Shown here piece by piece: positions 36,091-53,710 of a stretch of DNA of 64,000 nucleotides. The translations under genes and the position numbers were made by a program. Origin of the DNA: an uncultured Fidelibacterota bacterium (GTDB taxonomy: Bacteria; Fidelibacterota; Marinisomatia; Marinisomatales; Marinisomataceae); contig CABZHT010000001.1 of the NCBI GenBank assembly GCA_902525615.1, positions 50,813 to 114,812 on the forward strand, given 5' to 3'. How positions within the stretch are numbered: the stretch's first letter is position 1; the number at the start of each line of letters is the position of its first letter. Below the pieces are notes generated by a model that saw only the letters and a program-made list of their open reading frames with translations, was not told the origin of the DNA and did not search any database.

Positions 36091-36153
36091 GATTTCTCCT
36101 TTTTATTAATCATATGTACTTTTTTAAACACTGTTATTTAAAAAAAGTTTCAA

Positions 36154-37240: not shown

Positions 37241-37803
37241 GAGTCCAACCTTTTTACAGCCAAGAATAAAGTTAAATTTCTTTTTAAGTCATGAATATCA
37301 TTCTCAAGAATGTTAAGTCCATATTTCTTTGCGGAAAATTTACTTGCAATAACTGCTACTTGTTTCGGCAATCTTCCCTCCGCTAAATCTTGAGCAGCCT
37401 TAGCAGTATCATCCTCTTCAACAAGCTTTTTTGACCAGAATTTTTCAGCCAAATAGTCTTTACATTGTTTTAATGCTTGTTCGTGTGAACGAATTTCTTC
37501 AATATCTCCAACAGAAACACCATCTATTGCTAATAAATTTTGACTGATTTCTATAAAAAACATGTCAATGATTTGACACTGATTTTTTGCTAAAGCTTCT
37601 ACGCTTTCAATTACTACTCCTCCTTGAGCATTTTCCATAGCAAATATTCCTGTATCAATTGAATTATTTGATAAACTATCAAGAACGTTCATTGAACTAA
37701 CAAGATATTTTAATTCAAAATCTTTAATTCCAAATTTTTCACAATATGATTTTGCAGCTTCTTCGCTAAAACTACCTTCAATTCCTTGAATACCTACTTT
37801 CAT
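37237..37803 (-). CDS. pheA: Prephenate dehydratase, catalytic PDT domain only (no ACT domain)
   Basis: The ORF track gives 37237..37878. The likely start is the ATG at 37803 (MKVGIQGIEGSFSEEAA), which forms an ATGA overlap with the aroQ stop. ENAQGGVV and NLTLF (TRF-like) motifs. The protein ends about 10 aa after the PDT domain. Confidence 0.8.
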   Translation of the reverse strand: MKVGIQGIEGSFSEEAAKSYCEKFGIKDFELKYLVSSMNVLDSLSNNSIDTGIFAMENAQGGVVIESVEALAKNQCQIIDMFFIEISQNLLAIDGVSVGDIEEIRSHEQALKQCKDYLAEKFWSKKLVEEDDTAKAAQDLAEGRLPKQVAVIASKFSAKKYGLNILENDIHDLKRNLTLFLAVKRLDS

Positions 37804-38231
37804 TTTTTTATCTCCAAAATATGCTTTATGCCGTTTATATAACTTTGTTTTCCTTCGCCAAAAAAGTGTCCAATACAAACATTTTTAATGACGGAGGTTT
37901 TTCTAAAATTTTCTCGTTTATGAATATTTGACAAATGTACTTCAACCGTAGGAATTTGAGTGCCAACTATGGCATCTCTTAAAGAATATGAATAATGAGT
38001 CAGTGCACCAGCATTTAAAATGCAATAGTCTACTTTTCCTCTTTTTGAATGCAAAAAGTCAATCATTTCACCTTCTGAATTCGATTGAAAGAATTCAATT
38101 TCAAAATTCTGGCACAATTCATGATTTTGAATCCATGCATTGATCTGATTCAGACTCTCACTACCATAAATCTCAGGCTCTCTTTCGCCAAGCAAATTCA
38201 GGTTTGGACCATTCACGATAATTAATTTCAT
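37800..38231 (-). CDS. aroQ: 3-dehydroquinate dehydratase, type II
   Basis: 143 aa. MKLIIVNGPNLNLLGEREPEIYG and HLSNIHKRE motifs. Confidence 0.95.
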   Translation of the reverse strand: MKLIIVNGPNLNLLGEREPEIYGSESLNQINAWIQNHELCQNFEIEFFQSNSEGEMIDFLHSKRGKVDYCILNAGALTHYSYSLRDAIVGTQIPTVEVHLSNIHKRENFRKTSVIKNVCIGHFFGEGKQSYINGIKHILEIKK

Positions 38232-39295
38232 AACACGCTCAAACTTTCTTTAATTTGATCAAATGTGATATCTTTGCTGATTCTTGATTTACCAATTTCA
38301 TCTAATAAGATAAATCTAATTTTTTTCTCTCTAAATTTTTTGTCATTTTTGACAAAATTTATAAAAGTCTGTTTATTATCAATATCAAGTTTCGGTAATT
38401 CAAATTTAGATAATAATTGAGTGGATATTTCATATTCATCATTAGTTAAATTTCCAAATTTATTGGAAAGATATAATGCGCACTTCATACCATAAAAAAT
38501 TGCTTCTCCATGTAATAAATTTTTGTAATTAGTAAATGATTCAATTGCATGCCCAACAGTATGACCAAAATTCAGAATCATTCTTAATTCATTCTCATTT
38601 TCATCTTCACTAACAATATCGCTCTTTATTTCACAACATTTGATAATTATTTTCTGTAAAACATCTATATCTTTATTTTCAATTTTAATCGCATTAGCAA
38701 CTAAATAATCAAAAAATTCTTTATCATAAATGAAGCCGTATTTTACAACCTCTGCAAGAGCAGCTTGCAGTTCTCTATCTGGCAAAGTTGATAAAAAATT
38801 GGTATCAATTTCTACAGCTATTGGCTGATATATTCTTCCAACCAAATTTTTACCATCCTTTAAATTTATTCCTGTCTTTCCTCCTATTGCAGAATCAACC
38901 ATTGCAAGTAACGTGGTTGGATATTGAATGTATTTAATTCCTCTCATAAAAATTGATGATGCAAAGCCCGCAACATCTCCAACTACCCCTCCACCAACTG
39001 CAAACACTAATGATGATCTATCAAAATGTTTTTTTGCCATCTCATTTACAATTAAAGAAATAGATTCAAACGATTTTGCTTTTTCACCTTGATCAATCAA
39101 AAAAATATTTACATTAGGTAAATTAGAAAGCTCGTTTATTTCATCTTTATAATGATTTAGAATCTCTTTTTGAGTAATTAACATACATTGTGATTTTGTC
39201 GAAGATGCAAACTTTACAACTGAATTTTTGAAACTTTTAATCAAACTGATATTGTAACTATTGTTTCCTAAATCAACTTTAATCTTATTGGACAT
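38228..39295 (-). CDS. aroB: 3-dehydroquinate synthase
   Basis: 355 aa. GGGVVGDVAGFA nucleotide-binding motif and conserved His ligands (GHTVGHAIE, HGEAI). Confidence 0.95.
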   Translation of the reverse strand: MSNKIKVDLGNNSYNISLIKSFKNSVVKFASSTKSQCMLITQKEILNHYKDEINELSNLPNVNIFLIDQGEKAKSFESISLIVNEMAKKHFDRSSLVFAVGGGVVGDVAGFASSIFMRGIKYIQYPTTLLAMVDSAIGGKTGINLKDGKNLVGRIYQPIAVEIDTNFLSTLPDRELQAALAEVVKYGFIYDKEFFDYLVANAIKIENKDIDVLQKIIIKCCEIKSDIVSEDENENELRMILNFGHTVGHAIESFTNYKNLLHGEAIFYGMKCALYLSNKFGNLTNDEYEISTQLLSKFELPKLDIDNKQTFINFVKNDKKFREKKIRFILLDEIGKSRISKDITFDQIKESLSVL

Positions 39296-39806
39296 TAATT
39301 ATCTCCATTATTTGGTTGCAGTTGTCCTGAATAGTCTGATTATCGGTAATAACCTTACTTTTGCATAATGCTTCATACTTTTGCTCTCTTTTAAGCATAA
39401 TTTCTTCAAATACCTCATCTTTATTTTGGACATTTAATAATGGCCTAGAATTATCATCTTTAAGCCTATCTAGTAAGATATTTTTAGATGTTTTTAAATA
39501 AATGCAATGTTTTGAGCTTAACAATTCGTAACTATCTTTGTGTGATACTGCTCCTCCACCAACAGCTATAATAGTATTTTCTTTTGAAATATGTTTTTGT
39601 AATTCAGCAAATTCTAACTTTCTAAAATTTTCTTCTCCCTTAAAAAATAGCTCATTTATTGACATATCAAATGACTTGGTTAGTTCATCATCAATATCAA
39701 TAAAATTCCATCCTATGCTCAAAGAAAGAGCTTTTGCGGTGGAAGATTTTCCAGAACCCATCATTCCGATTAGATATAGTTGACTAGTATTTTCCACTGC
39801 TTTCAA
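39285..39806 (-). CDS. aroK: Shikimate kinase
   Basis: 173 aa. P-loop GMMGSGKSS and the GGGAV motif. Confidence 0.9.
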   Translation of the reverse strand: MKAVENTSQLYLIGMMGSGKSSTAKALSLSIGWNFIDIDDELTKSFDMSINELFFKGEENFRKLEFAELQKHISKENTIIAVGGGAVSHKDSYELLSSKHCIYLKTSKNILLDRLKDDNSRPLLNVQNKDEVFEEIMLKREQKYEALCKSKVITDNQTIQDNCNQIMEIINVQ

Positions 39807-40944
39807 TGTGTTTTTTTAATTGCTTAATACTATCTCCACCGAACTTTTCAAGTAATGCATCCGCAAGGACAATGGCCAACATACTTTCCCCAATGATTGA
39901 TGCCGCAGGAACTGCACAAGAATCTGTTCTTTCTTTATGCGCAAGCTTGGGCTCCATAGTATTTAAATCTATCGATCTTAAGGGCTTTATGAGCGTTGAA
40001 ATAGGTTTCATGCTCACCTTTACATGAATTGGTTGAGCATTGCTCATTCCACCTTCAATACCTCCAGCATTATTTCTTGAACGAGTGATTTTGTCATTTT
40101 CAAATAATATTTCATCATGAAGTTCGCTTCCAAATGCCGCAGATGAAGCAAAACCGGCTCCAACTTCCACGCCTTTAAAAGCATTCACGGACATCATTGC
40201 TTGGGAAATTCTGGCTTGAAGCTTTCCATCAGCATTGATATAGCTTCCTAAACCATAAGGCATTCCTTTGGCAATTACCTCAAAAGAACCTCCAACTGAA
40301 TCACCATTACTTTTCGCTTGATCAATAACGTTAATCATTTTTTCTTCTGCATCTTTATTTAAACATCTAACTGAGGATTTATCAGCTAAATCGTTTAATT
40401 GAGACATAGTTAAAGAATGGTCAACTTCTTTATTATCAACAACATCATGAATTTGATATACTCTACTACCAATGGTTATTCCTACTTCATCTAATAGTTT
40501 TCTGCAAATAGCACCAATAGCAACTCTCATTGCAGTTTCTCTTGCTGAAGATCGTTCTAAAACATTTCTAATATCATCAAAATCATATTTCATCATACCT
40601 GCTAAATCTGCATGTCCAGGTCGAGGCATTGTTACCTTTTTATGTTCTTTTTTAGGTTTACCTACTGCCATTCTATCTTCCCAGTTTACCCAATCTAAAT
40701 TTTTAATGATTAGGGATATTGGAGATCCGAGTGTGCGTTCATGTCGCACTCCTGAAAAAATTTCTGCAAAATCTTTTTCAATTTTCATTCTTTTTCCTCT
40801 GCCATGACCTTGCATTCTTCTTAAAAGATCAACCGCAATATATTCTTCAGTAAGATGAAGACCAGCAGGTATTCCTTCAATGATACCTATTAACCCTTTT
40901 CCATGCGATTCACCAGCGGTCATATATGATATTTTTTTTAACAT
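39784..40944 (-). CDS. aroC: Chorismate synthase
   Basis: 386 aa. GESHG signature, RPGHAD, and full-length similarity. Confidence 0.97.
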   Translation of the reverse strand: MLKKISYMTAGESHGKGLIGIIEGIPAGLHLTEEYIAVDLLRRMQGHGRGKRMKIEKDFAEIFSGVRHERTLGSPISLIIKNLDWVNWEDRMAVGKPKKEHKKVTMPRPGHADLAGMMKYDFDDIRNVLERSSARETAMRVAIGAICRKLLDEVGITIGSRVYQIHDVVDNKEVDHSLTMSQLNDLADKSSVRCLNKDAEEKMINVIDQAKSNGDSVGGSFEVIAKGMPYGLGSYINADGKLQARISQAMMSVNAFKGVEVGAGFASSAAFGSELHDEILFENDKITRSRNNAGGIEGGMSNAQPIHVKVSMKPISTLIKPLRSIDLNTMEPKLAHKERTDSCAVPAASIIGESMLAIVLADALLEKFGGDSIKQLKKHIESSGKY

Positions 40945-41756
40945 TTTATGTTCTCCAATTGTTTTCTCAAGGACTCAATTTGTGAATCCAAATTATAGTT
41001 AGTTTCTCTCCAAATTTCAATAGACTTCAAAGCTTGAAAAATAAACATATCAAGCCCATTAATCTTTTTGGAGCATTTATCAAATTTTTTTAAAAATAAA
41101 GTTTCTTTAGAAGTATAAATAAGATCAATTAATACTGTATGATCATGGATAGGAATATCAAAAAAATTGTCACTGTCTTCCTTATACATTCCTATTGGAG
41201 TTGTATTAATTGCAATATCATAACTAGCATGATTAGAATTAAATAGTTCTATATTGTTGAAACCAAGGGTATGAGCAAAATTTTGAAGATTGTAAGCATT
41301 ATCGATAGATCTGTTTTTTATAATAATCCTACCAATTCCCTTATCAATTAAGCATTTAACTACAGTTTTTGCTGATGATCCTGCCCCAAGGACAACACAG
41401 CTATTGCCCTCAATAACTATACCATTTTCATTTAACAGCATATCAAATCCATACTTATCAGTATTAAATCCACAAATCATATTATTTGATTTTGATATAC
41501 AGTTCACATTATTTAAGATTTTTGCTTCATTGTCAATAGCATCCAAAAACTTTACTACTCTACTTTTGAATGGTATCGTAACATTAATACCATTAAATAA
41601 ACCAAAATCATTATTGAAAAAATCATCAAGCTGATCATTCTCTAAATGAATTTTTTCAAAAGAACAGTTCAAAATATTTAATCTTTCATAAAGAATTTCA
41701 TGAAGCTGAGGGCTTAAACTTTTATCAATTGGGTTTCCTATCACTGCAAATTTCAT
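40938..41756 (-). CDS. aroE: Shikimate 5-dehydrogenase
   Basis: 272 aa. KSLSPQLH substrate motif, NVTIPFK, GAGSSAK NADP site. Confidence 0.9.
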   Translation of the reverse strand: MKFAVIGNPIDKSLSPQLHEILYERLNILNCSFEKIHLENDQLDDFFNNDFGLFNGINVTIPFKSRVVKFLDAIDNEAKILNNVNCISKSNNMICGFNTDKYGFDMLLNENGIVIEGNSCVVLGAGSSAKTVVKCLIDKGIGRIIIKNRSIDNAYNLQNFAHTLGFNNIELFNSNHASYDIAINTTPIGMYKEDSDNFFDIPIHDHTVLIDLIYTSKETLFLKKFDKCSKKINGLDMFIFQALKSIEIWRETNYNLDSQIESLRKQLENIKC

Positions 41757-43003
41757 TTGGTTACCTCGCTAAGATAATTGAAGAAATTTGGTAATGAAAT
41801 ATCAACGCATTGTGTATTATCAAGCTCATATTTTTCAAAAGAAGTAAGGCTAAAAATTGTGAATGCCATAGCAATCCTATGATCATCAAAGGTAGTTATT
41901 TTTGGCATTCTTTTTACCTTACCTCCCTCAACAAATAAGTCATTGTTTTTTTCATATGCCTTGATTCCAAATGCTTTTAGATTATGTATAATTGCGCTCA
42001 ACCTATCACATTCTTTATATTTTAACTCTTCTACATTTTTAAAAACTGTTGTGCCCTTTGCAAATGCAGCTACAACTGCTAATATTGGCACTTCATCTAT
42101 AATTGATGGTATAGTTTCTGATTCAATTTCTATTGCTTTAAGATTAGATGCGCTAACAGTTAAATCTCCTACCTTTTCACCATTATGAACTGACTCATTT
42201 GATTTTGTTATTAAACAATTCATTTTATTTAAAACTTCAACAAATCCAATTCTTGACTCGTTAAGTAATACATTGGTCAGCTTTAAATTTGAATTATTAT
42301 TAATAACTGCCAAAGCAACAAAAAAGGCTGCTGAGGATGGATCAGAGGGTACAGAAATATCAATCGACTTTAACTTAGATTTGAGTGGATGAACTATAAT
42401 TTTACTTCCTTCATTTTCAATTGATGCTCCCATATTCTTTAACATAATTTCTGAATGATTTCTTGTCTGAATAATCTCATTAATACTTGATACATTATTT
42501 CCACCTAAAGCTGAAAAAAGTATACTTGATTTCACCTGTGCACTTGCAACTTTCATATCATAATCTATAGCGCTAATACCTTTAGAAGCATCTATTGATA
42601 AGGGTAATAATCCATCATTAGAGGAAATTTTACATCCCATTGCTGTTAAAGGCGTAATTATTCGCTTCATTGGTCTTTTTGATAAGGATTCATCTCCAAT
42701 CAATGAAAATTTTAATTTTTGGGAAGCTAATAGTCCTGCAACCAGTCTAATAGTAGTTCCTGAATTACCACAATCAAGATTATTTGATGGAGAATGAAGT
42801 TCTTTTCCATTAATTACTATTTCATTTTCTCTTTCTTGTATTGAAGCTCCACAATCTTTCAAAATATTAATTGTTGACTGCAGATCAGCTCCATCATTTA
42901 AATTTCTAACATAACTAACTCCCTCAGCTATGGCTGAAAGCATAATTGCTCTATGAGAAATAGATTTATCTCCTGGAAGTTGCAATGTTCCTTGAACTAG
43001 CAT
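41753..43003 (-). CDS. aroA: 3-phosphoshikimate 1-carboxyvinyltransferase (EPSP synthase)
   Basis: 416 aa. LPGDKSISHR and NSGTTIRL motifs. Confidence 0.95.
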   Translation of the reverse strand: MLVQGTLQLPGDKSISHRAIMLSAIAEGVSYVRNLNDGADLQSTINILKDCGASIQERENEIVINGKELHSPSNNLDCGNSGTTIRLVAGLLASQKLKFSLIGDESLSKRPMKRIITPLTAMGCKISSNDGLLPLSIDASKGISAIDYDMKVASAQVKSSILFSALGGNNVSSINEIIQTRNHSEIMLKNMGASIENEGSKIIVHPLKSKLKSIDISVPSDPSSAAFFVALAVINNNSNLKLTNVLLNESRIGFVEVLNKMNCLITKSNESVHNGEKVGDLTVSASNLKAIEIESETIPSIIDEVPILAVVAAFAKGTTVFKNVEELKYKECDRLSAIIHNLKAFGIKAYEKNNDLFVEGGKVKRMPKITTFDDHRIAMAFTIFSLTSFEKYELDNTQCVDISLPNFFNYLSEVTK

Positions 43004-44344
43004 TTATCTTTGCAGCTCCTCCGCAATATTGAAAGAGAGTTCTAGCGCTTGATTAGCATTCAATCTTGGATCGCAATGCGTATGATATCTTGAATTTAAA
43101 TCCTCATCGCTCAGTTTATAAATCCCTCCTGTACACTCAGTAACATTTTGTCCGGTCATTTCTAGGTGTATACCACCCAAATGACATCCTTTATCCTTTA
43201 GAATCTTTATTGCCTCTGAAGTTTCGTTTAATAAAGAACTAAAATCTCTAGTTTTTAGTCCTGAGGAAGATTTTATTGTATTACCATGCATTGGGTCTGA
43301 TACCCATAAAACTTTTTTTCCATTTTTTGTTATTTCATTAATTAATCCTGGAAGATATTTACGGACTTTGTTTTTACCATATCTAAAGATCAAAGAAATT
43401 TTTCCAGGCTCATTATCTGGATTAATTTTATCAATTATTTTAATGAGCTCTTTAGTGTCTAAACTTGGTCCACACTTAATACCAATAGGATTATTAATTC
43501 CAGAACAATATTCAACATGAGCACTATCTACGAATCTAGTCCTATCGCCAATCCAAACCATGTGCGATGAAGTAGCAAAAGTTTTACCAGAAATTGAATC
43601 TGTTCTTGTAAGTGCAGATTCAAATGGTAAATGCAATGCTTCATGACTAGTATAAAAATCTACTGAATTTAGATAGTCTACAGAGTAAATATTTACACCA
43701 ATAGCCTCAATGAAATCAAGATATTCATTTATTTGGTTTGCTATTTTTTCATATTTTTTTCCCTCGGGTGTAGCTTTTACAAAACCCATATTCCAGGAAT
43801 TTACTTTTCTTAAATTTGCAAATCCGCCTTGTGCAAAAGATCTAATAAGATTAAGTGTAGATGCTGATTGTGAATAAGCTCTCAAAAGTCTTGAAGGGTT
43901 TGGTTCTCTCTTTTGTTCAGAAAATTCAATGCTATTTATTGAATCTCCAAAATAACTTGGTAATGTTTTATCATTAACTGTTTCAAAATCAGATGATCTA
44001 GGTTTAGCAAATTGACCAGCAATTCTTCCTACTTTAATTACTGGTACCTTCATTTTTGCGGTAAAAATGGCACTCATTTGCAAAATCACTCTAAATGTAT
44101 CTCTTATGCTATTAGCATTAAATTCCTTAAAACTTTCAGCACAATCACCACCTTGAATTAAAAAAGCTTTACCTTCAACAGCTAAAGCAAGCTTTTCTTT
44201 AAGACTGTTACACTCACCGGCAAAAACCAATGGTGGAAATTTTTCAATTTTCTTTAAAGCTTTTTTTAAAGCATCTTTATCCTTGTATTCGGGAATATGT
44301 TTAACAGTAAAATTTTCCCAAGAATTTTTAGTCCACTTACTCAT
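43004..44344 (-). CDS. 3-deoxy-7-phosphoheptulonate (DAHP) synthase, class II
   Basis: 446 aa. Class II length and the LIQGGDCAESF motif. Confidence 0.9.
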   Translation of the reverse strand: MSKWTKNSWENFTVKHIPEYKDKDALKKALKKIEKFPPLVFAGECNSLKEKLALAVEGKAFLIQGGDCAESFKEFNANSIRDTFRVILQMSAIFTAKMKVPVIKVGRIAGQFAKPRSSDFETVNDKTLPSYFGDSINSIEFSEQKREPNPSRLLRAYSQSASTLNLIRSFAQGGFANLRKVNSWNMGFVKATPEGKKYEKIANQINEYLDFIEAIGVNIYSVDYLNSVDFYTSHEALHLPFESALTRTDSISGKTFATSSHMVWIGDRTRFVDSAHVEYCSGINNPIGIKCGPSLDTKELIKIIDKINPDNEPGKISLIFRYGKNKVRKYLPGLINEITKNGKKVLWVSDPMHGNTIKSSSGLKTRDFSSLLNETSEAIKILKDKGCHLGGIHLEMTGQNVTECTGGIYKLSDEDLNSRYHTHCDPRLNANQALELSFNIAEELQR

Positions 44345-44604
44345 AATTCATTCCCTTCAATTTTTTTAGAAGCAGAAATTACACTAAGATATATTTCTTT
44401 TAAATATTTTGCCTCTTTTTCAGAAAATCTTGCATCTATTCTAGCATAAATTGAATTTTCTCGTTTTGAATCTTCAATTGGTATATTATCTTTAGATTTT
44501 ATTTCACCAATCTTCATGACAGGATCTAGCCTTTTAACTAAAAGGTCAAAAATCATATTATCAATATTATCAATATTTTTTCTTTCATCATTAATTTCCA
44601 ACAT
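44341..44604 (-). CDS. Chorismate mutase, stand-alone AroQ-class (87 aa)
   Basis: The ORF track gives 44341..44631. Its first 9 codons (MLGFFFGGI) are encoded by the terminator T-run and the SD. The real start is the ATG at 44604, preceded by GGAGGAATT. AroQ pattern: R..ID.ID..I..LL..R......IG..K...D..RE. ATGA overlap with the DAHP synthase gene. Confidence 0.8.
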   Translation of the reverse strand: MLEINDERKNIDNIDNMIFDLLVKRLDPVMKIGEIKSKDNIPIEDSKRENSIYARIDARFSEKEAKYLKEIYLSVISASKKIEGNEL

Positions 44605-44611
44605 AATTCCT

Positions 44612-44645
44612 CCAAAAAAAAACCCTAACAATTTTTGTTAGGGTT
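44612..44645 (-). terminator. Attenuator terminator directly upstream of chorismate mutase
   Basis: Minus strand: AACCCTAACA-AAAAT-TGTTAGGGTT, then T7, then GGAGGAATT-ATG. 10-bp stem. The hairpin ends 16 nt before the start codon. Confidence 0.8.
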
Positions 44646-44672
44646 TCTATAGTTTATGATATAATTATTCTA

Positions 44673-44732
44673 TCAGGCGCCTATAGTCCCCTTGCATCTA
44701 AAATAGAAATAATAGTAGTTAAAATTTTTCAT
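44673..44732 (-). CDS. Phe/Tyr-rich leader peptide ORF (19 aa): MKNFNYYYFYFRCKGTIGA
   Basis: Not in ORF track. ATG AAA AAT TTT AAC TAC TAT TAT TTC TAT TTT AGA TGC AAG GGG ACT ATA GGC GCC TGA. 7 of 8 consecutive codons are Phe/Tyr. It lies between the trpA stop and the attenuator hairpin. Confidence 0.7.
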   Translation of the reverse strand: MKNFNYYYFYFRCKGTIGA

Positions 44733-44773
44733 CAGAACATTTTAGTGATAAAAATCTACATGAGAAACAAAAA

Positions 44774-45535
44774 TTATTTTTTTAGGCTTTTCACAAAATT
44801 TTCAACGACACCCTTTTTTCTATCTTTAAGTACTTTTTTTATGACTGCAGATCCAACCACAGCTCCATTTGAAAAACTATTAAACCATTCAACATCATCA
44901 TTTGAACTTATACCAAAACCTACCATAAATGGTGTTTCACTATTTTCTTTTACTTTTGCTAAGTAGTTTTCCAAATTATTTTTTGAACTTAAATCATTTC
45001 CGGTAATACCTAAAATACTAACAGCATATATTAGATCTCCTGCAAGTTTAGAAATCTTCTTAATTCTTTTTTCCGCAGTATTTGGAGCAACTAGAAGTAT
45101 CGGAGATATATTTTTGTCCTTTAAATTATTACAAAATTCTACAGATTCGTCCAGAGGTAAATCTGGAAGAATAACACCGTCTATTTCTGCATCTTTACAT
45201 TTTTTTATGAAATCCATAGTACCCATTTTAAGAATTGGATTATAATAACCCATTAGTGCAATAGGGACATCAGTTTGCCTTCTTATATCTTTTACTTGTT
45301 CAAAAATTTCAAGTAATGTAATACCATTTTTCAAAGCTATTTCATTCGCCTCTTGAATGACCGGACCATCTGCTTGAGGATCTGAAAAAGGAATACCTAT
45401 CTCAATCATATCGGCACCTCCTTTTATTGCTTCCAAAACTAAATCCTTTGTGCTATCTTTTTCTGGAAAACCTGCAGTAATAAATACAATTAATTTTTTA
45501 GAATCATTTGAAAAAAGTTGTTTTATTCTATTCAT
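44774..45535 (-). CDS. trpA: Tryptophan synthase alpha chain
   Basis: 253 aa. [15 protein letters not shown] motif. Confidence 0.95.
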
Positions 45536-46740
45536 AATTCGATTCCCAATTCCTTAGCAATGGTATTTATATCTTTGTCTCCTCTTCCAGATAAATTCAA
45601 AATAACATGTTCATTTTTTTTAATATTATTGTTTTTATTTTTTAAATAAGCAACAGCATGTGCAGTCTCTAAAGCTGGAATAATACCCTCTTTTTCTGAT
45701 AACCACTTGAATGCTTCTAATGCTTCGTTATCCGTTGCTGATGAATATTCAACTCTTTTTGTTTTTTGCAGATAACTGTGCTCTGGACCAATTCCTGGAT
45801 AATCCAAACCTGCGGACAGAGAATATGGTAAAGCAATTTGACCATCATTACTTTGGAGTAACATTGATGCTGCACCATGCAATACTCCAAATTCTCCCTT
45901 TGTAAGAGTGGCAGCATGCTGATTTGTGTCAATCCCTTTTCCTGCAGCTTCAACTCCAACTATTTTTACGTCATCATCAATAAATGGGTAAAATAATCCA
46001 AGTGCATTAGATCCACCGCCAACACATGCTACAAGCCTATCGGGTAATTCATTGTTTGTTATATCTTTAAATTGTTTTTTTGTTTCTGTACCAATTACAG
46101 ATTGAAAATCACGAACAAGCATTGGATATGGATGAGGTCCAACCGATGAGCCAATGATATAAAATGTATCTTCAACATTTGTCACCCAATCCCTTATTGC
46201 TTCATTGGTAGCATCTTTTAAAGTTTTAGACCCAGAAGTTACAGGAATAACTTTTGCTCCCATTAAATTAATTTTAAACACATTAAGCTTTTGGCGCTCA
46301 ATATCTTCCTCACCCATGTAAACAATACATTCTAAACCAAATTTAGCAGCTGCTGCTGCAGTAGCTACACCATGTTGCCCTGCTCCTGTTTCAGCTATGA
46401 TTCTTTTCTTTCCCATTTTACGTGCCAATAAAATTTGTCCAAGAGCATTATTTATTTTGTGTGCACCTGTATGATTTAAATCTTCTCTTTTAAGCCACAC
46501 ATTGAAACCTAGTTCTCCAGAAATATTTTTAGCTAAATAAAGTGGAGTTGGTCTACCTCCATAATATTTAAGCAAATTAAAAAATTCTTTTTGGAAATTT
46601 TTATCTTTTTTACTCTTAAAATATTCCTGCTCTAATTCATCCAATGCAGGAATAAGAGTTTCAGGAACATATTTTCCACCAAATTCTTCAAAATGCCCAT
46701 GTTTATCAGGCATATTATATTTTTTAACTAAACTATCCAA
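45532..46740 (-). CDS. trpB: Tryptophan synthase beta chain
   Basis: 402 aa. PLP-lysine motif HTGAHKINN and the GGGSNA motif. Confidence 0.97.
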
Positions 46741-47365
46741 AACTAAACTCCTTCTTTTTTGTTTGTTTTAAAATTTTGACAATCCTAAAGATTTTTGACT
46801 TACTTTTTAATCCAGGACTTTTTTCAACACCACTATTTATGTCAACTGCGTGAGGATTAATCTGATTAATACCATCTAAAATATTTTTCTCATTTAAACC
46901 CCCTGATAGTATGATTGGAAGATTGAATTTCACATTTTCAATCACTTTCCAATTAAAGATTTTACCAGTACCTCCAAATTGATTTTTTGTTCTATTATCG
47001 AGCAAAATTGCGTGTACATCATAATTTTTTATTACATTTAAATCACTTTTTTTTGAAACAGATAAAGCTTTTATGACCGGAACTTTGAAATTATTACAAA
47101 ATTCAGGTGTTTCATCTCCATGTAGCTGAATTGCATCAAGATTTAATTCATTTATGATATCATTGATAATATTTTCATTCTCATTTACAAAAATGCCAAT
47201 TTTTTTTAACCCAGAAGAACTCATGCTGATTTTTTTTGCATTTTCTATATCAACATATCTTGGGCTTTTATCATAAAATATCATGCCTATAGCAGATGCC
47301 CCAGCAGTTTTTGCATGCATAGCATCTTTATAATTAGTTATACCACAAATTTTTAAGTCAATCAT
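46733..47365 (-). CDS. trpF: Phosphoribosylanthranilate isomerase
   Basis: 210 aa. N-terminal KICGIT motif and QLHGDE. Confidence 0.9.
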
Positions 47366-48120
47366 AGCCCTTTAATAATTCTTTCAAGTTTTTTTCCAGG
47401 ATTATTACTTTTCATTAAAGATGTTCCCATAAGTATCGCATCATATCCCAGTTGTTCAACAATTTTTATTTTTTTAGTACTTTTAAAACCGCTTTCAGCA
47501 ACCTTAAGCGAATCTTTAGGTAGTTTTGGATAAAATCTCTCAAATCTTGAAAAATCAAGTTCCATTTTTTTTAAATTTCTACAATTAACGCCGACAATTG
47601 TTGGATTAAGCTCGTTAATAGTCAAAAGGTTTTTTCTATCGTGAATTTCTACCAATGTTTCCAATTTTTCATTTAATCCAAGGTTATAAAGGTCTGCCAA
47701 ATCATTGTAGTCCAAGGCTTCAGCAATTAATAAAAAAGCGTCAGAACCATGGCTCATTCCTTGTAAAATTTGTTTTTTACTTATGATAAAATCTTTTTGC
47801 ATAACAGGAATGTTCACTGCGTTTTTAATATCCTTTAAAAATTTAATATCACCATTAAAAAATCGTTTATCAGTTAGAACAGAAATAGCTGCAGCGCCAG
47901 CATTTTCATAATCTTTAGCAATTTGAATATGTTCACCTTTTTTAAGAATTATCCCTTCGCTTGGTGATGCAAATTTTATTTCTGCAATTATAGATATTTT
48001 GTCTCTTTTTAAAGCTTTTTTTAAACTGAGCCTTTTAAAGTTGGAGCTTTCTAAATGTATTTCAGGAATTTTCTCAATTTCTGTTTTTTTATGATTCAAA
48101 ATCTTATCTAAAATATTCAC
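47362..48120 (-). CDS. trpC: Indole-3-glycerol phosphate synthase
   Basis: 252 aa. IIAEIKFASPSEG motif and VGVNCRNL. Confidence 0.92.
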   Translation of the reverse strand: MNILDKILNHKKTEIEKIPEIHLESSNFKRLSLKKALKRDKISIIAEIKFASPSEGIILKKGEHIQIAKDYENAGAAAISVLTDKRFFNGDIKFLKDIKNAVNIPVMQKDFIISKKQILQGMSHGSDAFLLIAEALDYNDLADLYNLGLNEKLETLVEIHDRKNLLTINELNPTIVGVNCRNLKKMELDFSRFERFYPKLPKDSLKVAESGFKSTKKIKIVEQLGYDAILMGTSLMKSNNPGKKLERIIKGL

Positions 48121-49112
48121 TTTTGTATACCTTTCAATGCCTTAAGAGCCGATAAAGAATCGACTGATTCTTCCGCTAAAGAATAACCTTCTTTTAAAGA
48201 CGTTGCTTTACCTCCAACCATGATTCCTGCAGCGGCATTCAGCAAAACTATGTCTCTGTGAGGACCTTTTTTTCCATTTAAAATATCCAAAATAATTTTT
48301 GCATTAATATCTGAAGTACCTCCTTGTAAATCTTTATGTTTGGACAATGAAATTCCTATAGACTTTGGATCAAATTTTAAGTTGATAATTTTACTATCGT
48401 TTAAAAAATAAGAAATATTAGAATCACAAGTAGTGGTTAGCTCGTCAAGGCCATCATCTCCGTTAAAAACCATAACATTTTTTGAACCTAAATTTTTCAA
48501 AACTTGTGTTTGAATTTTAGTCAATGATGGTTCAAAAACCCCCATTGCTTGATTTTTAACATTTGCAGGATTGCATAATGGACCTAAAATATTGAAAACT
48601 GTTTTAATTTTTAATTTACTTCTAACATTCATAGCATTTTTTACAGCTGGATGAAAATTGGGAGCAAACATGAAACATATATTATTTTTTTCTAAACTTC
48701 GAATACAATTTTCATTTGATTTATTTATATCTACGTTCAATGCTTCAAGAACATCAGCTGAACCTGATTTTGATGTCATAGATCTATTACCATGTTTAGC
48801 TACCTTTATTCCTGCTCCAGCCACAACAATTGATGATGCAGTTGAAATATTAAATGTTCCAGAATAATCTCCGCCTGTACCACACATATCAATAGCAGAA
48901 AAATTAAGATCTAATTCAATCATAGTTTGTCGCATAGCTTTTGCAAAACCAGTTATTTCATCAACTGTTTCTCCTTTTGACCTTAAACCAACTAATAAAG
49001 CTGCAATTTGAATGTCATCTAGATTTCCTTTCATTAATTTTAGCATAATTTCAAAAGCTTCTTTCTCGTTAAGGTTTTCTTTTTTTACAACTTTTTTTAT
49101 TGATTCAATCAT
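48117..49112 (-). CDS. trpD: Anthranilate phosphoribosyltransferase
   Basis: 331 aa. CGTGGD and KHGNRS motifs. Confidence 0.95.
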   Translation of the reverse strand: MIESIKKVVKKENLNEKEAFEIMLKLMKGNLDDIQIAALLVGLRSKGETVDEITGFAKAMRQTMIELDLNFSAIDMCGTGGDYSGTFNISTASSIVVAGAGIKVAKHGNRSMTSKSGSADVLEALNVDINKSNENCIRSLEKNNICFMFAPNFHPAVKNAMNVRSKLKIKTVFNILGPLCNPANVKNQAMGVFEPSLTKIQTQVLKNLGSKNVMVFNGDDGLDELTTTCDSNISYFLNDSKIINLKFDPKSIGISLSKHKDLQGGTSDINAKIILDILNGKKGPHRDIVLLNAAAGIMVGGKATSLKEGYSLAEESVDSLSALKALKGIQK

Positions 49113-49676
49113 CTATATCTCCAAAAAATTTTTAATTATGGCTTTTCCGTCTTTTGTAGCAATCGATTCAGGGTGAAATTGAACTCCATAAAGATTTGAA
49201 GTCTTGTGTTTAAGCCCCATGATGGTTTTATTATCAGTTTCAGCAATTACTTTCAAGCAAGAAGGTAAAGAAGCTTTGTCAACAATAAGCGAATGATATC
49301 TAGTGGCATTAAAGCTATCATTTATACCTTTAAATAATTTTGAACCAAAATGATTAATATTTGAAACTTTACCATGCATAATTTTTTTCGCTTGAACTAT
49401 TTCACCACCAAAAGCATATCCAATTGCCTGATGTCCTAGACAAACACCTAATATTGGAACTTTTTGATAAAAATGTTGAATGACTTCAACAATATTTCCT
49501 GCGTTTTCAGGTTTTCCCGGTCCAGGAGAAATAACTATATGGGAAGGATTGATTTCTTTAACATTTTTTAAGGATGTTTCATTATTTCTTTTGGTAACAA
49601 TATCTTTCTTTATGTCACCAATATATTGCACAAGATTGTAAGTAAAGCTATCGTAGTTATCAATAACAAGTATCAT
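49113..49676 (-). CDS. trpG: Anthranilate synthase component II (glutamine amidotransferase)
   Basis: 187 aa. Triad context GVCLGHQ and QFHPES. Confidence 0.95.
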   Translation of the reverse strand: MILVIDNYDSFTYNLVQYIGDIKKDIVTKRNNETSLKNVKEINPSHIVISPGPGKPENAGNIVEVIQHFYQKVPILGVCLGHQAIGYAFGGEIVQAKKIMHGKVSNINHFGSKLFKGINDSFNATRYHSLIVDKASLPSCLKVIAETDNKTIMGLKHKTSNLYGVQFHPESIATKDGKAIIKNFLEI

Positions 49677-51154
49677 TTTATCAATCCATTTTCAGCAAGA
49701 TCAATTGCAGCATTCATGACTTTTGCTTTATTTACAGTTTCATCAAACTCTTTTGATGGAATCGAATCATAAACAATACCAGCTCCAGCTTGAAAGTATG
49801 CAATTTTGTTTTTTAAAATCATAGTTCTTATTGAAATGCAAGTGTTTAAGTTTCCGTTAAAATCTATAAAACCAATTGCTCCTGAAAAAATACCTCTACT
49901 ATCATTTTCTAATTCATTAATTATCTCCATTGCTCTAATTTTTGGTGCTCCTGAAACTGTCCCGGCAGGAAAACCACTTTTTAAAGCATCAAAAATGTTT
50001 TTATCTTTCATAAGTGTTCCTCTTACATCTGAAACGATATGCATCACATGTGAATACATCTCAATATTCATTTTTTCTTTAATTTTAACACTGTCAAATT
50101 CAGAGACTCTTCCAACATCATTTCTTCCTAAATCAAGCAACATCAAGTGTTCAGCTAATTCCTTTTTATCGTTTAATAAATCTTGAGCATTTTTTTCATC
50201 CTCTGCTGAATTTTTACCCCTCAATCTAGTACCAGCAATTGGACGAATTTCAATTTCACCTTCCTGTACTTTAATCATAAGCTCAGGAGAAGCACCAATA
50301 ACATCAAATGAATCAATTTTTAAATGGAACATATATGGTGAAGGATTAATAGACCTTAATGCTCTGTAAATATTTAAAGGTTCTGATAAGGTTTTTCTTT
50401 CAAATCTTTGACTCAAAACAACTTGAAAAATATCGCCAGACTTAACATATTTTTTTGCTTTATTTACAATTTTTTCAAATTCACTTTTTTTAAAGTTAGA
50501 GATTGTAGGAAATGATTTTGTGACTAATGGAGTTCTAAATTCATGATTCGAATGTAATAAATTTCCAATAGAATCAACTCTTGAATTAGCCTCATCAAAA
50601 AGTTCATTTAAATTTGTACTTCTTTCAAAATTTACGTTTGATACTGCAATAGCGTCGCCATTTAAGTGATCAAAAACAATTATGTCTTCAAAAAGCATAA
50701 ATTTTGAATCAGGTATTTGTAAATATTTCGTTTTTTTAACTGGAACATTTTCGAAAAAATCAATCATTTCATATCCAAAGTAACCAACAATTCCTCCTGT
50801 AAAATGTGGAAGTTGATTTAGTTTTTGGCTTTTATATGAATCATTTAAATTTTTCAAAAAATCAAAGAAGTTAGCATCTATTTTTTTTCGTTTACCATTA
50901 ATAACCTCAAATAAAGTCTTCTGGTCATATTCAAAAATTCTTGATGGATTTATGCCAACATAAGAATATCTGCCATTTTTCTTTGCTTTCTCCACAGATT
51001 CAAGAATGAATCCGTAATCGGAGTGCATTGATAAATTTGCCCAGGCTGCAGTAGGTGTAATCGTATCTGCCATTATTCTTTTGAAAAAAGGCACAACTTT
51101 TCTTCCATCTTTTGCAAGCAATTTAAATTCTTTTTTTGATAATTTATTTTTCAT
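49673..51154 (-). CDS. trpE: Anthranilate synthase component I
   Basis: 493 aa. GDIFQVVLSQRF and chorismate-binding C-terminal motifs (GAIGFIDFNGN, IRT). Confidence 0.95.
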   Translation of the reverse strand: MKNKLSKKEFKLLAKDGRKVVPFFKRIMADTITPTAAWANLSMHSDYGFILESVEKAKKNGRYSYVGINPSRIFEYDQKTLFEVINGKRKKIDANFFDFLKNLNDSYKSQKLNQLPHFTGGIVGYFGYEMIDFFENVPVKKTKYLQIPDSKFMLFEDIIVFDHLNGDAIAVSNVNFERSTNLNELFDEANSRVDSIGNLLHSNHEFRTPLVTKSFPTISNFKKSEFEKIVNKAKKYVKSGDIFQVVLSQRFERKTLSEPLNIYRALRSINPSPYMFHLKIDSFDVIGASPELMIKVQEGEIEIRPIAGTRLRGKNSAEDEKNAQDLLNDKKELAEHLMLLDLGRNDVGRVSEFDSVKIKEKMNIEMYSHVMHIVSDVRGTLMKDKNIFDALKSGFPAGTVSGAPKIRAMEIINELENDSRGIFSGAIGFIDFNGNLNTCISIRTMILKNKIAYFQAGAGIVYDSIPSKEFDETVNKAKVMNAAIDLAENGLIK

Positions 51155-51161
51155 TTTATGT

Positions 51162-51188
51162 AAAAAAAAACCCCGATAAACGGGGTTT
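51162..51188 (-). terminator. Attenuator terminator directly upstream of trpE
   Basis: Minus strand: AAACCCCG-TTTAT-CGGGGTTT, then T6 (9 T in a row in total), then ACATAAA-ATG. The hairpin ends 13 nt before the trpE start. Confidence 0.8.
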
Positions 51189-51214
51189 CAAAATCTTGTT
51201 TACATGAACTTGAC

Positions 51215-51274
51215 TTACAAGACAGATTCCCCGACTTGAAAATACCACTTCCATGTTTTTGAGTTATTTTTCAC
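51215..51274 (-). CDS. Candidate Trp leader peptide ORF (19 aa, GTG start): (M)KNNSKTWKWYFQVGESVL
   Basis: Not in ORF track. GTG AAA AAT AAC TCA AAA ACA TGG AAG TGG TAT TTT CAA GTC GGG GAA TCT GTC TTG TAA. Same length, same MKN start and same spacing to the terminator as the Phe/Tyr leader. Confidence 0.45.
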   Translation of the reverse strand: MKNNSKTWKWYFQVGESVL

Positions 51275-51280
51275 ACGAAA

Positions 51281-51309
51281 ATATTAAAACATAAAATAAA
51301 ATTTTGCAA
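51281..51309 (-). promoter_or_regulatory. Candidate sigma70-type promoter of the trp leader
   Basis: Minus strand: TTGCAA (51309-51304), 17 nt, TAATAT (51286-51281), then 6 nt to the GTG. The -35 starts 5 nt after the acylase stop codon. Sequence-only prediction. Confidence 0.35.
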
Positions 51310-51313
51310 ATAC

Positions 51314-53710
51314 TTATTTTGATTTGAATACTAATTTTGATGATTTTGAAGAATTTATAGCATCATAAGTAAACATAAATGGCTTGAATTCTCCTCTATT
51401 ATACATCTCTGTTTGATCACGATAATGTTTGGATCTAAATAATCCAGATTGCCCAGTTGGAAGTATGCTAAAACCATTATCAAAATCAGAAAAATCGATT
51501 ATTCTTCTCATTGAGGAACCTGCTCGAACATCAAAAGGCTTGCTAACAGAATAGCTTGCAGCTCTAGGAGTCATTTCTGATCCTGCCATTGGAAATGGTC
51601 CAACACTAAAATTTATTAATCTTTGAACCAGAGGATCTGCATCTAAATTATGCTCATAAGTAACTTGATGAACATCTCCCCATATAAGCTCTGAAGGATT
51701 TCCATATTTATCTTTAAGAAAAATAAATGCGTCTTCAAAAGACTTGTTCACAATATCGTTAAGGGTCTCTTTTTTAACAGTTTTTACATTATCAACCCAA
51801 AGATTAGTCTTACCATCAAAAATGTTTCTAATTGCTTGTGTTCTTATGTATTTAAGGCTATAGAATGTATCAAATGATCCATCACCAAAGCTCTGTAACT
51901 CATCTTGAAATATATTTTGAACAAGGTGAATATAAATTGCATGAAATGCAACAGCCCCTTTTGAATCTAATGATTCAACACCATCCCAATCTTTGAGCAT
52001 TTCATATATTTTATCAGCATTATCTGAAAAACCTAACAAATAGTTCTGAACAAAAAGTGGAGCGTATTGTTGGCCAAATGGAGCAGTTACTTCATTAAGA
52101 ATAGACTTCATATCTTCAGTTGATAATTTTATGTCCGTGTTTAATCTCCTATCAATTTGAGTAGCTCTACTAGGATCAGCCCAATATCTTGATATATAAT
52201 AAGGATATTCGTTACCAACAATTTTATTATTTCCGTTTGAAATATATCCTTTTTCAGGATTAAAAGAGAATGGCATTTCATCAAAGGAAATGTATCCTTG
52301 CCAATCATACTTAGTTGTGCTTCCATCAAAAGGAACAAGTTTATCAGCATCAAGTCTGATAGGAATTTTTGTACTTGGTCTCCATCCAATATTTCCATCT
52401 TTGTCAGCGTACGTCCAATTTTGTCCAGGAGCTCCAAACAACTTTGAAGCTTCATTAAAATCTTCCCAATTTCTTGCTTTTGCAAGCATAAATAAGCCAG
52501 TGGTTTCGTCAAACGCATCAAATTCTGTCCATCTAAATGATATAGCTTTATTCAAAGCTTTGGCGTCTCGATGAATTTCAGATATGATTGGACCTCTATG
52601 AGTAGATCTAATAATAATTTTGCTCTTTGAACCTGATTTAAGGACTAATTCTTCCTCAACAATAACTAAATCTCTCCATTCGCCATCTACGTAGTATTTT
52701 GTTTGATCTTCGTTAAGTGTTTCGATATAAAAATCCATATCATCAGTCATCACATTTGTAAAACCCCATCCAATATTTTCGTTATGTCCAATCACCGGAA
52801 GTGGGATACCATACAATCCATATCCTCCAAAATTATAATTATCACTTTTTAAACGAATCTCATACCACCAAGGAGGTAAATTATATGCTAAATGTGGATC
52901 ATTGGCTAATAAAGGCTTACCAGATGTAGTTTTTGTTCCAGAAACTGCCCATGCATTAGAACCATATCCATGTCTATCAGTTTTCAGTAAATTTCTCAAA
53001 TCTTCCGTATCGCTAGCGTACTGCTTAAATGATTTTAACAGAACGTCATTTGATGCAATGGTAACAAAATTTGGATCATATGATGGTAAGATTTCTGATA
53101 AATATTCTGGGCCAAGTTGTTCATTAATTGCTCCAAAAAATAATTCAGAATCCCATCCACCTTGTAGTTCCCATGCCATCATAGTGCTTAAAGCAACGAT
53201 ATCAAGTGGTTCAAAGACTGGAAGATCGTCTATTTGTAATAACTTAAACTCTAACGGATATTTAGATGGAGTGAGGCTTTGAACATAAGCGTTTATCCCG
53301 TAGCAGGTGTCTTCTAAATGCTTTAGTATATCTGCAGGAACTTTTTTTAAGGTTTTTTGGGCGATTTTTTCAAATCCTAATGTTCTCAAAAAACGATCTT
53401 CAGAAAATAAGGTATCATTTACAACATAACTGAGCTGGCCTTTATATGCATACTTCAAAAAAGCCATTTGAAACAATCTATCTCTTGCTCCTAGATAACC
53501 TGCAACTTTAAACATATCAGAATCGTTTTCAGCAAAAACACTTGGAACACCATAATCATCAAATAATACTTCAACATCATTTTGTAAAGATAGTTCTTGA
53601 TTTATTCCATCATATTTAACGTTGGCTGGTTTTAAAAAAGAATTGACGGAAAAATTAATTAAAATTATTAAAGTAATTGCAAAAAAAAGAACCTTATATA
53701 CCTTTCCCAT
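51314..53710 (-). CDS. Penicillin/cephalosporin/AHL acylase family protein (Ntn hydrolase, S45)
   Basis: 798 aa. N-terminal signal/anchor. Candidate autoprocessing nucleophile Ser in GYGSNAWAVSG, followed by LLANDPHL. Confidence 0.85.
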   Translation of the reverse strand: MGKVYKVLFFAITLIILINFSVNSFLKPANVKYDGINQELSLQNDVEVLFDDYGVPSVFAENDSDMFKVAGYLGARDRLFQMAFLKYAYKGQLSYVVNDTLFSEDRFLRTLGFEKIAQKTLKKVPADILKHLEDTCYGINAYVQSLTPSKYPLEFKLLQIDDLPVFEPLDIVALSTMMAWELQGGWDSELFFGAINEQLGPEYLSEILPSYDPNFVTIASNDVLLKSFKQYASDTEDLRNLLKTDRHGYGSNAWAVSGTKTTSGKPLLANDPHLAYNLPPWWYEIRLKSDNYNFGGYGLYGIPLPVIGHNENIGWGFTNVMTDDMDFYIETLNEDQTKYYVDGEWRDLVIVEEELVLKSGSKSKIIIRSTHRGPIISEIHRDAKALNKAISFRWTEFDAFDETTGLFMLAKARNWEDFNEASKLFGAPGQNWTYADKDGNIGWRPSTKIPIRLDADKLVPFDGSTTKYDWQGYISFDEMPFSFNPEKGYISNGNNKIVGNEYPYYISRYWADPSRATQIDRRLNTDIKLSTEDMKSILNEVTAPFGQQYAPLFVQNYLLGFSDNADKIYEMLKDWDGVESLDSKGAVAFHAIYIHLVQNIFQDELQSFGDGSFDTFYSLKYIRTQAIRNIFDGKTNLWVDNVKTVKKETLNDIVNKSFEDAFIFLKDKYGNPSELIWGDVHQVTYEHNLDADPLVQRLINFSVGPFPMAGSEMTPRAASYSVSKPFDVRAGSSMRRIIDFSDFDNGFSILPTGQSGLFRSKHYRDQTEMYNRGEFKPFMFTYDAINSSKSSKLVFKSK

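Follow-up and report, generated by a model that had tools for sequence, protein, structure and literature searches.

A predicted leader-peptide attenuator with a run of phenylalanine and tyrosine codons ahead of the ten-gene aromatic operon of an uncultured Marinimicrobia bacterium

Leader-peptide attenuation of the aromatic amino acid genes is textbook knowledge for trpL, pheL, and pheM of Escherichia coli. In pheL-pheA and trpL-trpEDCBA, a short open reading frame (ORF) rich in codons for the product of the operon is followed by a terminator before the first gene, and an alternative helix consumes the 5' arm of that terminator. The same logic is found in the DNA described here, a 64-kb stretch from the genome of an uncultured bacterium (hereafter the window), where a 169-nucleotide (nt) spacer between trpA and a chorismate mutase gene holds a leader ORF and a terminator. 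This element, which we call the aro leader, is very probably a ribosome-mediated attenuator that senses charged tRNA-Tyr and tRNA-Phe and gates a ten-gene aromatic operon; the support for this reading is computational. The E. coli leaders have Shine-Dalgarno sites and four segments, and their 1:2 helix leads to termination if no ribosome translates the leader, whereas the window element is predicted to form its antiterminator by default. In addition, pheL controls only pheA, whereas the window element would control the whole pathway.

In Bacillus subtilis, the trp operon is nested co-directionally in an aromatic supraoperon and has internal attenuation, in which the TRAP protein binds (G/U)AG repeats. 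In the window, by contrast, both control points are putative leader peptides, and the order is trp and then aro. Mixed leaders have also been described. In Corynebacterium glutamicum, a Phe-Tyr-Phe leader, aroR, lies upstream of the 3-deoxy-D-arabino-heptulosonate 7-phosphate (DAHP) synthase gene aroF (Neshat et al. 2014, via PMC11802643); in C. glutamicum, limitation for Phe alone had an effect. Both aroR and the window leader are mixed Phe/Tyr attenuators, the latter by prediction, that precede a DAHP synthase operon and control the common pathway and not one terminal branch. The run in the window is much longer (seven of eight codons, dominated by Tyr), and its operon also covers the remaining shikimate steps, pheA, and tyrA. 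The phyla are unrelated (Actinobacteria versus Marinimicrobia, of the Fibrobacteres-Chlorobi-Bacteroidetes [FCB] group), and the likeness is one drawn from their descriptions. An earlier reading of the window (the sequence-only reading) had presented a mixed Tyr and Phe leader gating the whole pathway as new. The gene set is as it described, but the claim of novelty was too strong because aroR is already documented in C. glutamicum.

Leaderless leader peptides are known from Streptomyces lividans, in which the start codons of trpL1, leuL, and ilvL are the transcription starts, with a hairpin and a U-stretch behind each ORF (PMC8079986). For these actinobacterial leaders the transcription starts were mapped by transcriptome sequencing (RNA-seq), whereas in the window the start is predicted from a −10 box 6 to 8 nt before an ATG or GTG. 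A 2010 survey gave leader peptides as known only from Proteobacteria and Actinobacteria and added the Firmicutes. In the searchable papers we found none that links Marinimicrobia with leader peptides, and no report of leaderless leader peptides in Marinimicrobia or other FCB-group bacteria. Vitreschak and colleagues are said to have reported candidate attenuators in Bacteroidetes/Chlorobi in 2004. Thus neither a mixed Phe/Tyr leader (C. glutamicum) nor a leaderless leader peptide (Actinobacteria) is new; the points of interest here are the lineage, the probable leaderless start, the paired trp and aro versions, and their serial arrangement.

The closest genome matches of the DAHP synthase in the window are to Marinimicrobia (SAR406, Candidatus Neomarinimicrobiota), at 74 to 77% identity. 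The sequence-only reading had placed the DNA in a non-enterobacterial low-GC lineage; GC content is indeed 30.7% in the window and about 27% in spacer DNA, and the lineage is Marinimicrobia, not a Firmicute. The genes downstream of the aro leader encode a type II chorismate mutase (CM_2) and a class II DAHP synthase, followed by aroA, aroE, aroC, aroK, aroB, aroQ, pheA, and tyrA. The parts of the element and its operon are as follows.

44761 to 44766, minus strand: candidate −35 hexamer TTCTCA for the promoter of the aro leader, known only by its match to the consensus, within AT-rich DNA; TTCTCA-16-TAAAAT scores 9/12, and relative L081 has TTGTCA at the same position.
44739 to 44744, minus strand: candidate −10 hexamer TAAAAT, which most close relatives have as TAATAT, with 6 nt between its end and the leader ATG and pointing to the putative transcription start.
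44673 to 44732, minus strand: leader ORF, MKNFNYYYFYFRCKGTIGA plus the TGA stop (44675 to 44673), 19 codons, no Shine-Dalgarno sequence; orthologous ORFs in 31 distinct sequences.
44700 to 44723, minus strand: regulatory run TTT AAC TAC TAT TAT TTC TAT TTT (codons 4 to 11), seven of eight codons Phe or Tyr; Phe/Tyr, sometimes Trp, kept in every lineage, the peptides otherwise differing.
44681 to 44692, minus strand: antiterminator 5' arm AGGGGACUAUAG, leader codons 14 to 18; alignment columns 41 to 44 and 47 to 52; duplex z = −3.8, P = 0.002.
44657 to 44675, minus strand: predicted central hairpin UGAUA-N9-UAUCA, which includes the stop codon and is the apical part of the antiterminator.
44640 to 44652, minus strand: antiterminator 3' arm CUAUAGAAACCCU; alignment columns 82 to 87 and 91 to 94; its last 7 nt open the terminator 5' arm.
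44614 to 44646, minus strand: intrinsic terminator AAACCCUAACAA/UUGUUAGGGUUU, with a 12-bp stem (44646 to 44620), a 3-nt loop, and U9 (44622 to 44614).
44602 to 44613, minus strand: Shine-Dalgarno sequence GGAGG (44613 to 44609) and ATG (44604) of the chorismate mutase gene, the first gene of the aro operon.
44604 to 36527, minus strand: aro operon, ten genes from chorismate mutase to tyrA, behind the aro leader.

The features named by the sequence-only reading are all present, and the coordinates it gave are correct. Chief among them are the 19-codon ORF, whose ATG at 44732 lies 41 nt downstream of the trpA stop (44776 to 44774, minus strand), its stretch of seven Phe/Tyr codons in eight, the alternative pairing that consumes the terminator 5' arm, and the hairpin with a T-run ahead of the chorismate mutase ATG, given there as 10 bp and measured here as 12 bp. 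The enrichment in codons for the products of the operon is that of the attenuator class, since seven of eight codons are for Phe or Tyr ahead of chorismate mutase, DAHP synthase, the aro genes, pheA, and tyrA. The probability of at least seven Phe/Tyr codons in eight is 3e-6 per site, which agrees with the value of 1e-5 to 1e-6 in the sequence-only reading, but across the window that estimate overstated the case. Over both strands and all frames, 0.4 to 0.6 such runs are expected by chance, and at least one occurred in 28% of second-order Markov simulations of the window. Indeed, a second run of at least seven in eight lies at 49077 on the plus strand, antisense within the trp genes, evidently by chance. 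Because of this expectation and this example, the run alone is not significant. We judge it to be nonrandom because it lies in the 169-nt spacer, is opened by an ATG, stands ahead of a terminator before the aro genes, and is conserved.

The terminator hairpin starts 26 to 27 nt past the leader stop and is followed by U9, GGAGG, and the chorismate mutase ATG; with its U9 included it ends 10 nt before that ATG, and it has the form of a Rho-independent terminator. Only four strict terminators were found in the window, and two of them are the attenuator terminators, 13 to 15 nt ahead of trpE and of the chorismate mutase gene. In the antiterminator, AGGG(GA)CUAUAG (44692 to 44681) pairs with CUAUAG(AAA)CCCU (44652 to 44640); the two helices are mutually exclusive, since AGGG/CCCU plus CUAUAG/CUAUAG takes 7 nt of the terminator 5' arm. 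The antiterminator 5' arm is separated from the last aromatic codon by 7 nt and from the stop by 5 nt, a spacing that is conserved across clades, and the leader stop falls 0 to 6 nt after this arm in all lineages. The calculated energies are −14.7 kcal/mol for the antiterminator and −13.8 kcal/mol for the terminator, the energy comparison that the sequence-only reading had called for, and the antiterminator is the minimum free energy (MFE) structure of the RNA made before the terminator 3' arm. The same holds for all 31 of 31 orthologous sequences (−11.4 to −18.1 kcal/mol, with terminators of −12.6 to −16.5 kcal/mol). In other clades the counterpart of the central hairpin is CCUA-N4-UAGG or CAGG-N4-CCUG.

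A metagenome scan with the chorismate mutase alignment gave 72 loci, which after removal of duplicates left 31 distinct sequences with an orthologous leader. They fall into three main clades. In clade A, which includes the window and has trpA upstream, the leader reads MKNFN[Y/N]YYFYFRC[K/R]GTIGA; in clade B, with penicillin amidase or other genes upstream, it reads MKNFF[N/D]YYYFRSRGTVEA and variants; and in clade C it reads MKSNNNFYYYFNGRGYVGT. Because the upstream genes differ in this way, the element goes with the aro operon rather than trpA. Among more distant Marinimicrobia, the order is leader-(pheA)-tyrA-DAHP synthase, and the leaders again have an aromatic run and a terminator: MCMFNYYYWNYRKSGG (L014), MIKLTAEQFTIFYWYYGSGGLE (L016), MATNYYYKFFMNNGLRIRP (L017), MATKYYYQTYFNDGLRVSP (L019), MLNTFYFYYFAKTRGNT (L026), ...FYNFYGYF... 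(L022), ...NYYSSYFFF... (L023 and L015), and MKIFFYYFKY... (L010). The aromatic-codon run is thus kept, together with a terminator directly ahead of the first aro gene, in all 31 orthologous leaders and in nine distant leaders of unrelated peptide sequence, as the sequence-only reading would predict, and every distant leader has a G-rich ORF end complementary to a C-rich terminator arm (for example, GGGUUGGAGU/ACUCCAACCC in L016 and GGGUUGAGG/CCUCAACCC in L017).

Compensatory changes were found in both helices. In alignment A2, the terminator (columns 89 to 97 with 107 to 115) is 98.9% paired, with four pairs changed on both sides, and the antiterminator (columns 41 to 44 with 91 to 94, and 47 to 52 with 82 to 87) is 93.2% paired, with three pairs changed on both sides (42-93, 47-87, and 49-85). 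Pair 49-85 is A-U in clade A versus G-C in clades B and C, and pair 47-87 is C-G versus A-U. Pair 42-93 changes from G-C to A-U in L112, which the terminator partner accommodates as a G-U pair. Column 94 has two alternative partners, 41 and 110, and covaries with each. None of 500 column shuffles, which ignore phylogeny, reached the observed covariation score for either helix, and sliding the 3' partner by 1 to 3 columns reduced pairing to 18 to 66%. We regard this covariation as good support for a switch, not as proof of one.

The pairing was also tested without an alignment. The last 24 nt of the ORF were paired with the terminator 5'-arm region and compared with composition-matched shuffles in 16 aro and trp lineages; P was ≤0.026 in 12 of the 16. 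(The row for the trp leader of the window was left out as invalid, and the structure of that leader was taken from the terminator scan and the nascent folds.) For the nascent folds, RNA extending up to the terminator loop was folded with a 30-nt ribosome footprint masked. The antiterminator formed when no ribosome was placed and when one sat on the aromatic codons (MFE, −9 to −27 kcal/mol). Placing the ribosome at the stop codon left nothing but weak, unrelated structures (−1.6 to −12 kcal/mol) and kept the terminator arm free. This is the dependence on ribosome position that the sequence-only reading had proposed.

A sister element lies ahead of trpE in the window and has the following parts.

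51309 to 51304 and 51286 to 51281, minus strand: promoter-like TTGCAA-17-TAATAT, ending 6 nt before the trp-leader GTG.
51215 to 51274, minus strand: trp leader ORF with a GTG start, VKNNSKTWKWYFQVGESVL plus TAA, containing W-K-W (Trp codons at 51253 to 51251 and 51247 to 51245).
51162 to 51233, minus strand: trp antiterminator (arms 51233 to 51217 and 51199 to 51181) and terminator (51188 to 51168, plus U9 to 51162).

The trp antiterminator, CGGGG...UCUUGU/ACAAGA...CCCCG, has a calculated energy of −15.6 kcal/mol, and the trpE ATG (51154) is 7 nt past the U9. In the close TrpE relatives L153 and L154 the trp leader is kept, with W-I-W and W-K-W, and the GTG start is retained; the duplex test gave z = −4.7 for the trp leader of L154. 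TrpE relatives at about 60% identity (L155, L157, and L160) have leaders of the MNNMNTKNYYSWYWFFNQEGVL type, with an ATG start 8 nt after TAATAT. The switch parts of these three trp leaders and of the aro leaders of L022 and L023 align over their full length, with a common UCCCAGGnAUACCUG block, and on this alignment the aro and trp leaders are members of one family.

How the leader would be translated is suggested by the sequence in front of it. Upstream of the start codon, the window reads TTCTCA-16-TAAAAT-6-ATG, L081 has TTGTCA-16-TAAAAT, clade B has TTGCTA-18-TAAACT-7-ATG, and clade C has TTGCCA-18-TAATAT-8-ATG. A −10 box 6 to 8 nt before the leader start is also found in the distant L010, L016, L022, L023, and L026, and in nearly all lineages, for aro and trp leaders alike, a −35/−10 pair stands at this distance from the start codon; hexamer matches are common in AT-rich DNA. 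The exceptions are L017 and L019, in which the distance is about 20 nt and there is an AGGA motif. This spacing suggests that the leader peptides, including that of the GTG-start trp leader, are translated from leaderless mRNA.

A two-codon ORF, ATG-TTC-TGA (44740 to 44732), which the sequence-only reading had listed as abutting the leader ATG, is present. As a functional part it was rejected: it overlaps TAAAAT (44744 to 44739) and the 6-nt spacer, its middle codon varies (TTC, CTC, TTT, or ATA), and it is absent in clade C. It is most simply read as promoter and spacer sequence, and its coding appearance as incidental.

We infer from the sequence, in the following model, where transcription starts, that the ORF is translated and ribosomes stall on it, and how the operon responds. 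Transcription would start at or 1 to 2 nt from the leader ATG, directed by the −10 box 6 nt upstream, and a ribosome would load onto the 5'-terminal AUG as soon as it emerges. When Tyr- and Phe-tRNA are plentiful, the ribosome would reach the UGA, and its footprint would cover the G-rich AGGGGACUAUAG, which ends 5 nt before the stop. Thus covered, AGGGGACUAUAG could not pair with CUAUAGAAACCCU; the terminator hairpin and U9 would form, and RNA polymerase would stop 10 nt before the chorismate mutase start codon. When Tyr- or Phe-tRNA is scarce, the ribosome would stall in codons 4 to 11 and the G-rich segment would stay free. During transcription it would then pair with the terminator stem's 5' half, ahead of synthesis of the 3' half, and the polymerase would read through. 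Since untranslated nascent RNA folds into the antiterminator in nearly all lineages, the element appears to be on unless a terminating ribosome switches it off, a simpler arrangement than the four-segment trp scheme of E. coli.

Several observations weigh against this reading or limit it. As noted above, the Phe/Tyr run on its own is statistically ordinary for this window. The leader ORF has no Shine-Dalgarno sequence, and because of this, its translation would depend on the proposed leaderless start. That start is a prediction because promoter-like hexamers are not in excess over shuffles in the AT-rich aro-leader region (6 found versus 8.5 expected). The covariation events that are independent are few (three main clades and a few singletons), and the shuffle control takes no account of phylogeny. 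In the window, the helix that truly competes with the terminator is only 4 bp (AGGG/CCCU). Ribosome position selects the structure when the footprint is masked on nascent RNA, but equilibrium folds of the full transcript of the window give the terminator in all three ribosome states (P = 0.94 to 0.95). A switch at equilibrium was seen only in some lineages, most clearly in L004 and to a smaller or partial extent in L010, L014, L017, and L026. Because the full-length folds of the window do not switch, the decision would have to be kinetic and cotranscriptional, as it is in classical attenuators. As for the reach of the element across the phylum, about half of the distant genome loci have genes head to tail up to the edge of the sampled DNA, with the operon start beyond it.

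Could the element be something simpler? The hairpin lies 130 nt after trpA and there is no other terminator between trpA and the chorismate mutase gene, as would be expected of a plain terminator of the trp operon. The aro operon would then be transcribed from its own unregulated promoter or by read-through, and the aromatic mini-ORF would be a chance product of an AT-rich spacer, of a kind for which 0.4 to 0.6 instances are expected per window and one clear example exists at 49077 on the plus strand. We consider this very improbable. The ORF, antiterminator, and terminator also precede the aro operon where penicillin amidase or another gene is upstream and no trp operon is nearby, and aromatic runs recur in the unrelated leader sequences of distant lineages; this trpA-independent conservation of run and antiterminator argues strongly against a mere trp terminator. 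Moreover, the antiterminator covaries, and the U-tract abuts the ribosome-binding site of the chorismate mutase gene, which leaves no room for a promoter behind the terminator. About as improbable is a small protein gene, in which the mini-ORF would make a functional hydrophobic or aromatic peptide and the downstream structure would be its ordinary terminator. Close relatives do share the ORF, and action in trans is known for some leader peptides, such as peTrpL of Sinorhizobium meliloti. Across lineages, however, neither the length nor the sequence of the peptide is conserved beyond the aromatic run; the C-terminal residues that are conserved fall on the RNA arm, in which substitutions track base-pairing and not the similarity of amino acids (for example, K14R is the change of A-U to G-U at column 41); and a terminator that simply ended the transcript would leave the aro operon promoterless. 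A trans function of the leader peptide could exist alongside attenuation.

The remaining alternative keeps the switch but not the ribosome as its sensor: the signal would be read by an RNA-binding protein (TRAP- or PyrR-like), by uncharged tRNA as in a T-box, or by a small-molecule aptamer, with the ORF incidental. It fits with the predicted status of leader translation, with the lack of a Shine-Dalgarno sequence, with the several UAG/GAG triplets between the arms, and with the insensitivity of the window to ribosome masks in equilibrium folding. Even so it is unlikely, if somewhat less so than the two explanations above. No leader family, T-box, or riboswitch was matched by Rfam over positions 43500 to 52500 at E ≤ 10, nor any other Rfam family that would supply such a sensor, and a scan of the whole window at gathering scores found no leader family, T-box, or riboswitch. 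Rfam holds leader models for Phe, Trp, His, Leu, and Thr. The weak matches that did appear (NsiR1, rnk_leader, and STnc230) were below threshold and driven by the terminator hairpin, and were discarded. At about 120 nt with one simple helix, the RNA is too small for a T-box. A TRAP site has 9 to 11 regularly spaced (G/U)AG repeats, 2 to 3 nt apart, that overlap the antiterminator; in the leader sequence the UAG/GAG triplets are few and irregularly spaced, unlike a TRAP site, although no search for a TRAP gene was made. The sole feature upstream of the switch that is common to all lineages is the in-frame run of aromatic codons between a start codon and a stop, and the trp version carries Trp codons instead, as expected if codon identity is the sensor. 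The attenuator interpretation of the sequence-only reading is therefore the one we favor, supported by the aromatic run, the terminator, the antiterminator, the covariation, the nascent folds, and the sister Trp leader. On the Rfam searches the element has no homologue, in sequence or structure, among the enterobacterial leaders; it belongs by sequence to no described family but would work like pheL, trpL, and aroR.

The attenuators have a distinctive setting. Upstream of the aro leader are trpEGDCFBA and, further upstream, a penicillin amidase gene. Positions 36527 to 51274 form one aromatic supraoperon of 17 genes, all read in the same direction; it has two attenuators in series, and no terminator separates trpA from the aro leader. 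In clade B relatives (loci L001 to L003 and L089 to L091) the penicillin amidase gene directly abuts the aro leader, whereas in the window clade the trp leader and trpEGDCFBA sit between them. Because there is no other terminator between trpA and the chorismate mutase gene, the aro-leader terminator probably also ends the trp-operon transcripts in the window clade.

Several further features of these loci were recorded. Two or three stop codons close the leader in tandem (UGA UAG in the window, 44657 to 44675; UAA UAA UAG in clade B), and these stops are complementary to the Tyr-codon run (44700 to 44713). A 1:2 "protector" helix between that run and the tandem stops (UGAUAGAAUAAU or UAAUAAUAG) was predicted in full-length folds of clades A and B. 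Because its register differs between these two clades and clade C lacks it, the helix was left out of the model; low-complexity sequence may have produced it incidentally. The trpE start, 7 nt past its terminator U-tract, has no Shine-Dalgarno motif (51154 to 51170), whereas the chorismate mutase gene has a canonical GGAGG; one genome therefore mixes starts with and without a Shine-Dalgarno sequence. Immediately after tyrA are two ORFs (120 and 175 amino acids; 35563 to 36516, minus strand) with no Pfam match.

Outside the window, in the TrpE relatives at about 60% identity (L155 to L161, positions ~470 to 700), the trp leader combines Tyr, Trp, and Phe (NYYSWYWFF) and is immediately preceded by a small CM_2 gene; this hints that the trp operon of these relatives may be cross-regulated by Tyr and Phe. 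Chorismate mutase homologues L117 to L123 were rejected as leader carriers, as no aromatic leader is upstream of them. The conserved block that is found there (~1260 to 1360; for example, L118, 1263 to 1361, minus strand) is a thiamine pyrophosphate (TPP) riboswitch on the opposite strand (64.5 bits) and is unrelated. In an Arcobacteraceae metagenome-assembled genome (MAG) (L074, 6777 to 6842), a mini-ORF, MMKNFVLIFIQYFIFFKAKHS, and a terminator-like hairpin lie downstream of the DAHP synthase gene; this mini-ORF could be a Phe-type leader in a Campylobacterota genome.

These findings do not reveal a new mechanism; they place a classic one in a new lineage, and they provide a well-supported regulatory annotation for an abundant uncultured marine phylum. 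If the element is an attenuator, SAR406 tunes its synthesis of aromatic amino acids by way of tRNA charging and not by a known repressor, and leader-peptide attenuation extends past the phyla of the 2010 survey (Proteobacteria, Actinobacteria, and Firmicutes). The approximately 45 aligned sequences are a basis for a new RNA family model with which to annotate MAGs. More tentatively, and at slightly less than even odds, leaderless leader-peptide attenuators may form an RNA family that extends throughout the Marinimicrobia and has not been described before, with paralogous versions for aro (Tyr/Phe, sometimes Trp) and for trp (Trp, sometimes with Tyr/Phe). A 5'-terminal AUG or GUG would recruit the ribosome directly in its members, the nascent RNA would be on by default, and a ribosome at the stop codon would be the off-switch; in the window clade the two versions would be wired in series, so that a 17-gene supraoperon is gated by Trp and then by Tyr/Phe. 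If true, these would be the first leaderless leader peptides outside the Actinobacteria. The conserved spacing from promoter to start codon predicts leaderless translation and coupling of transcription to translation in Marinimicrobia, and the family would then provide sequence-level evidence that this coupling is tight in an uncultured phylum.

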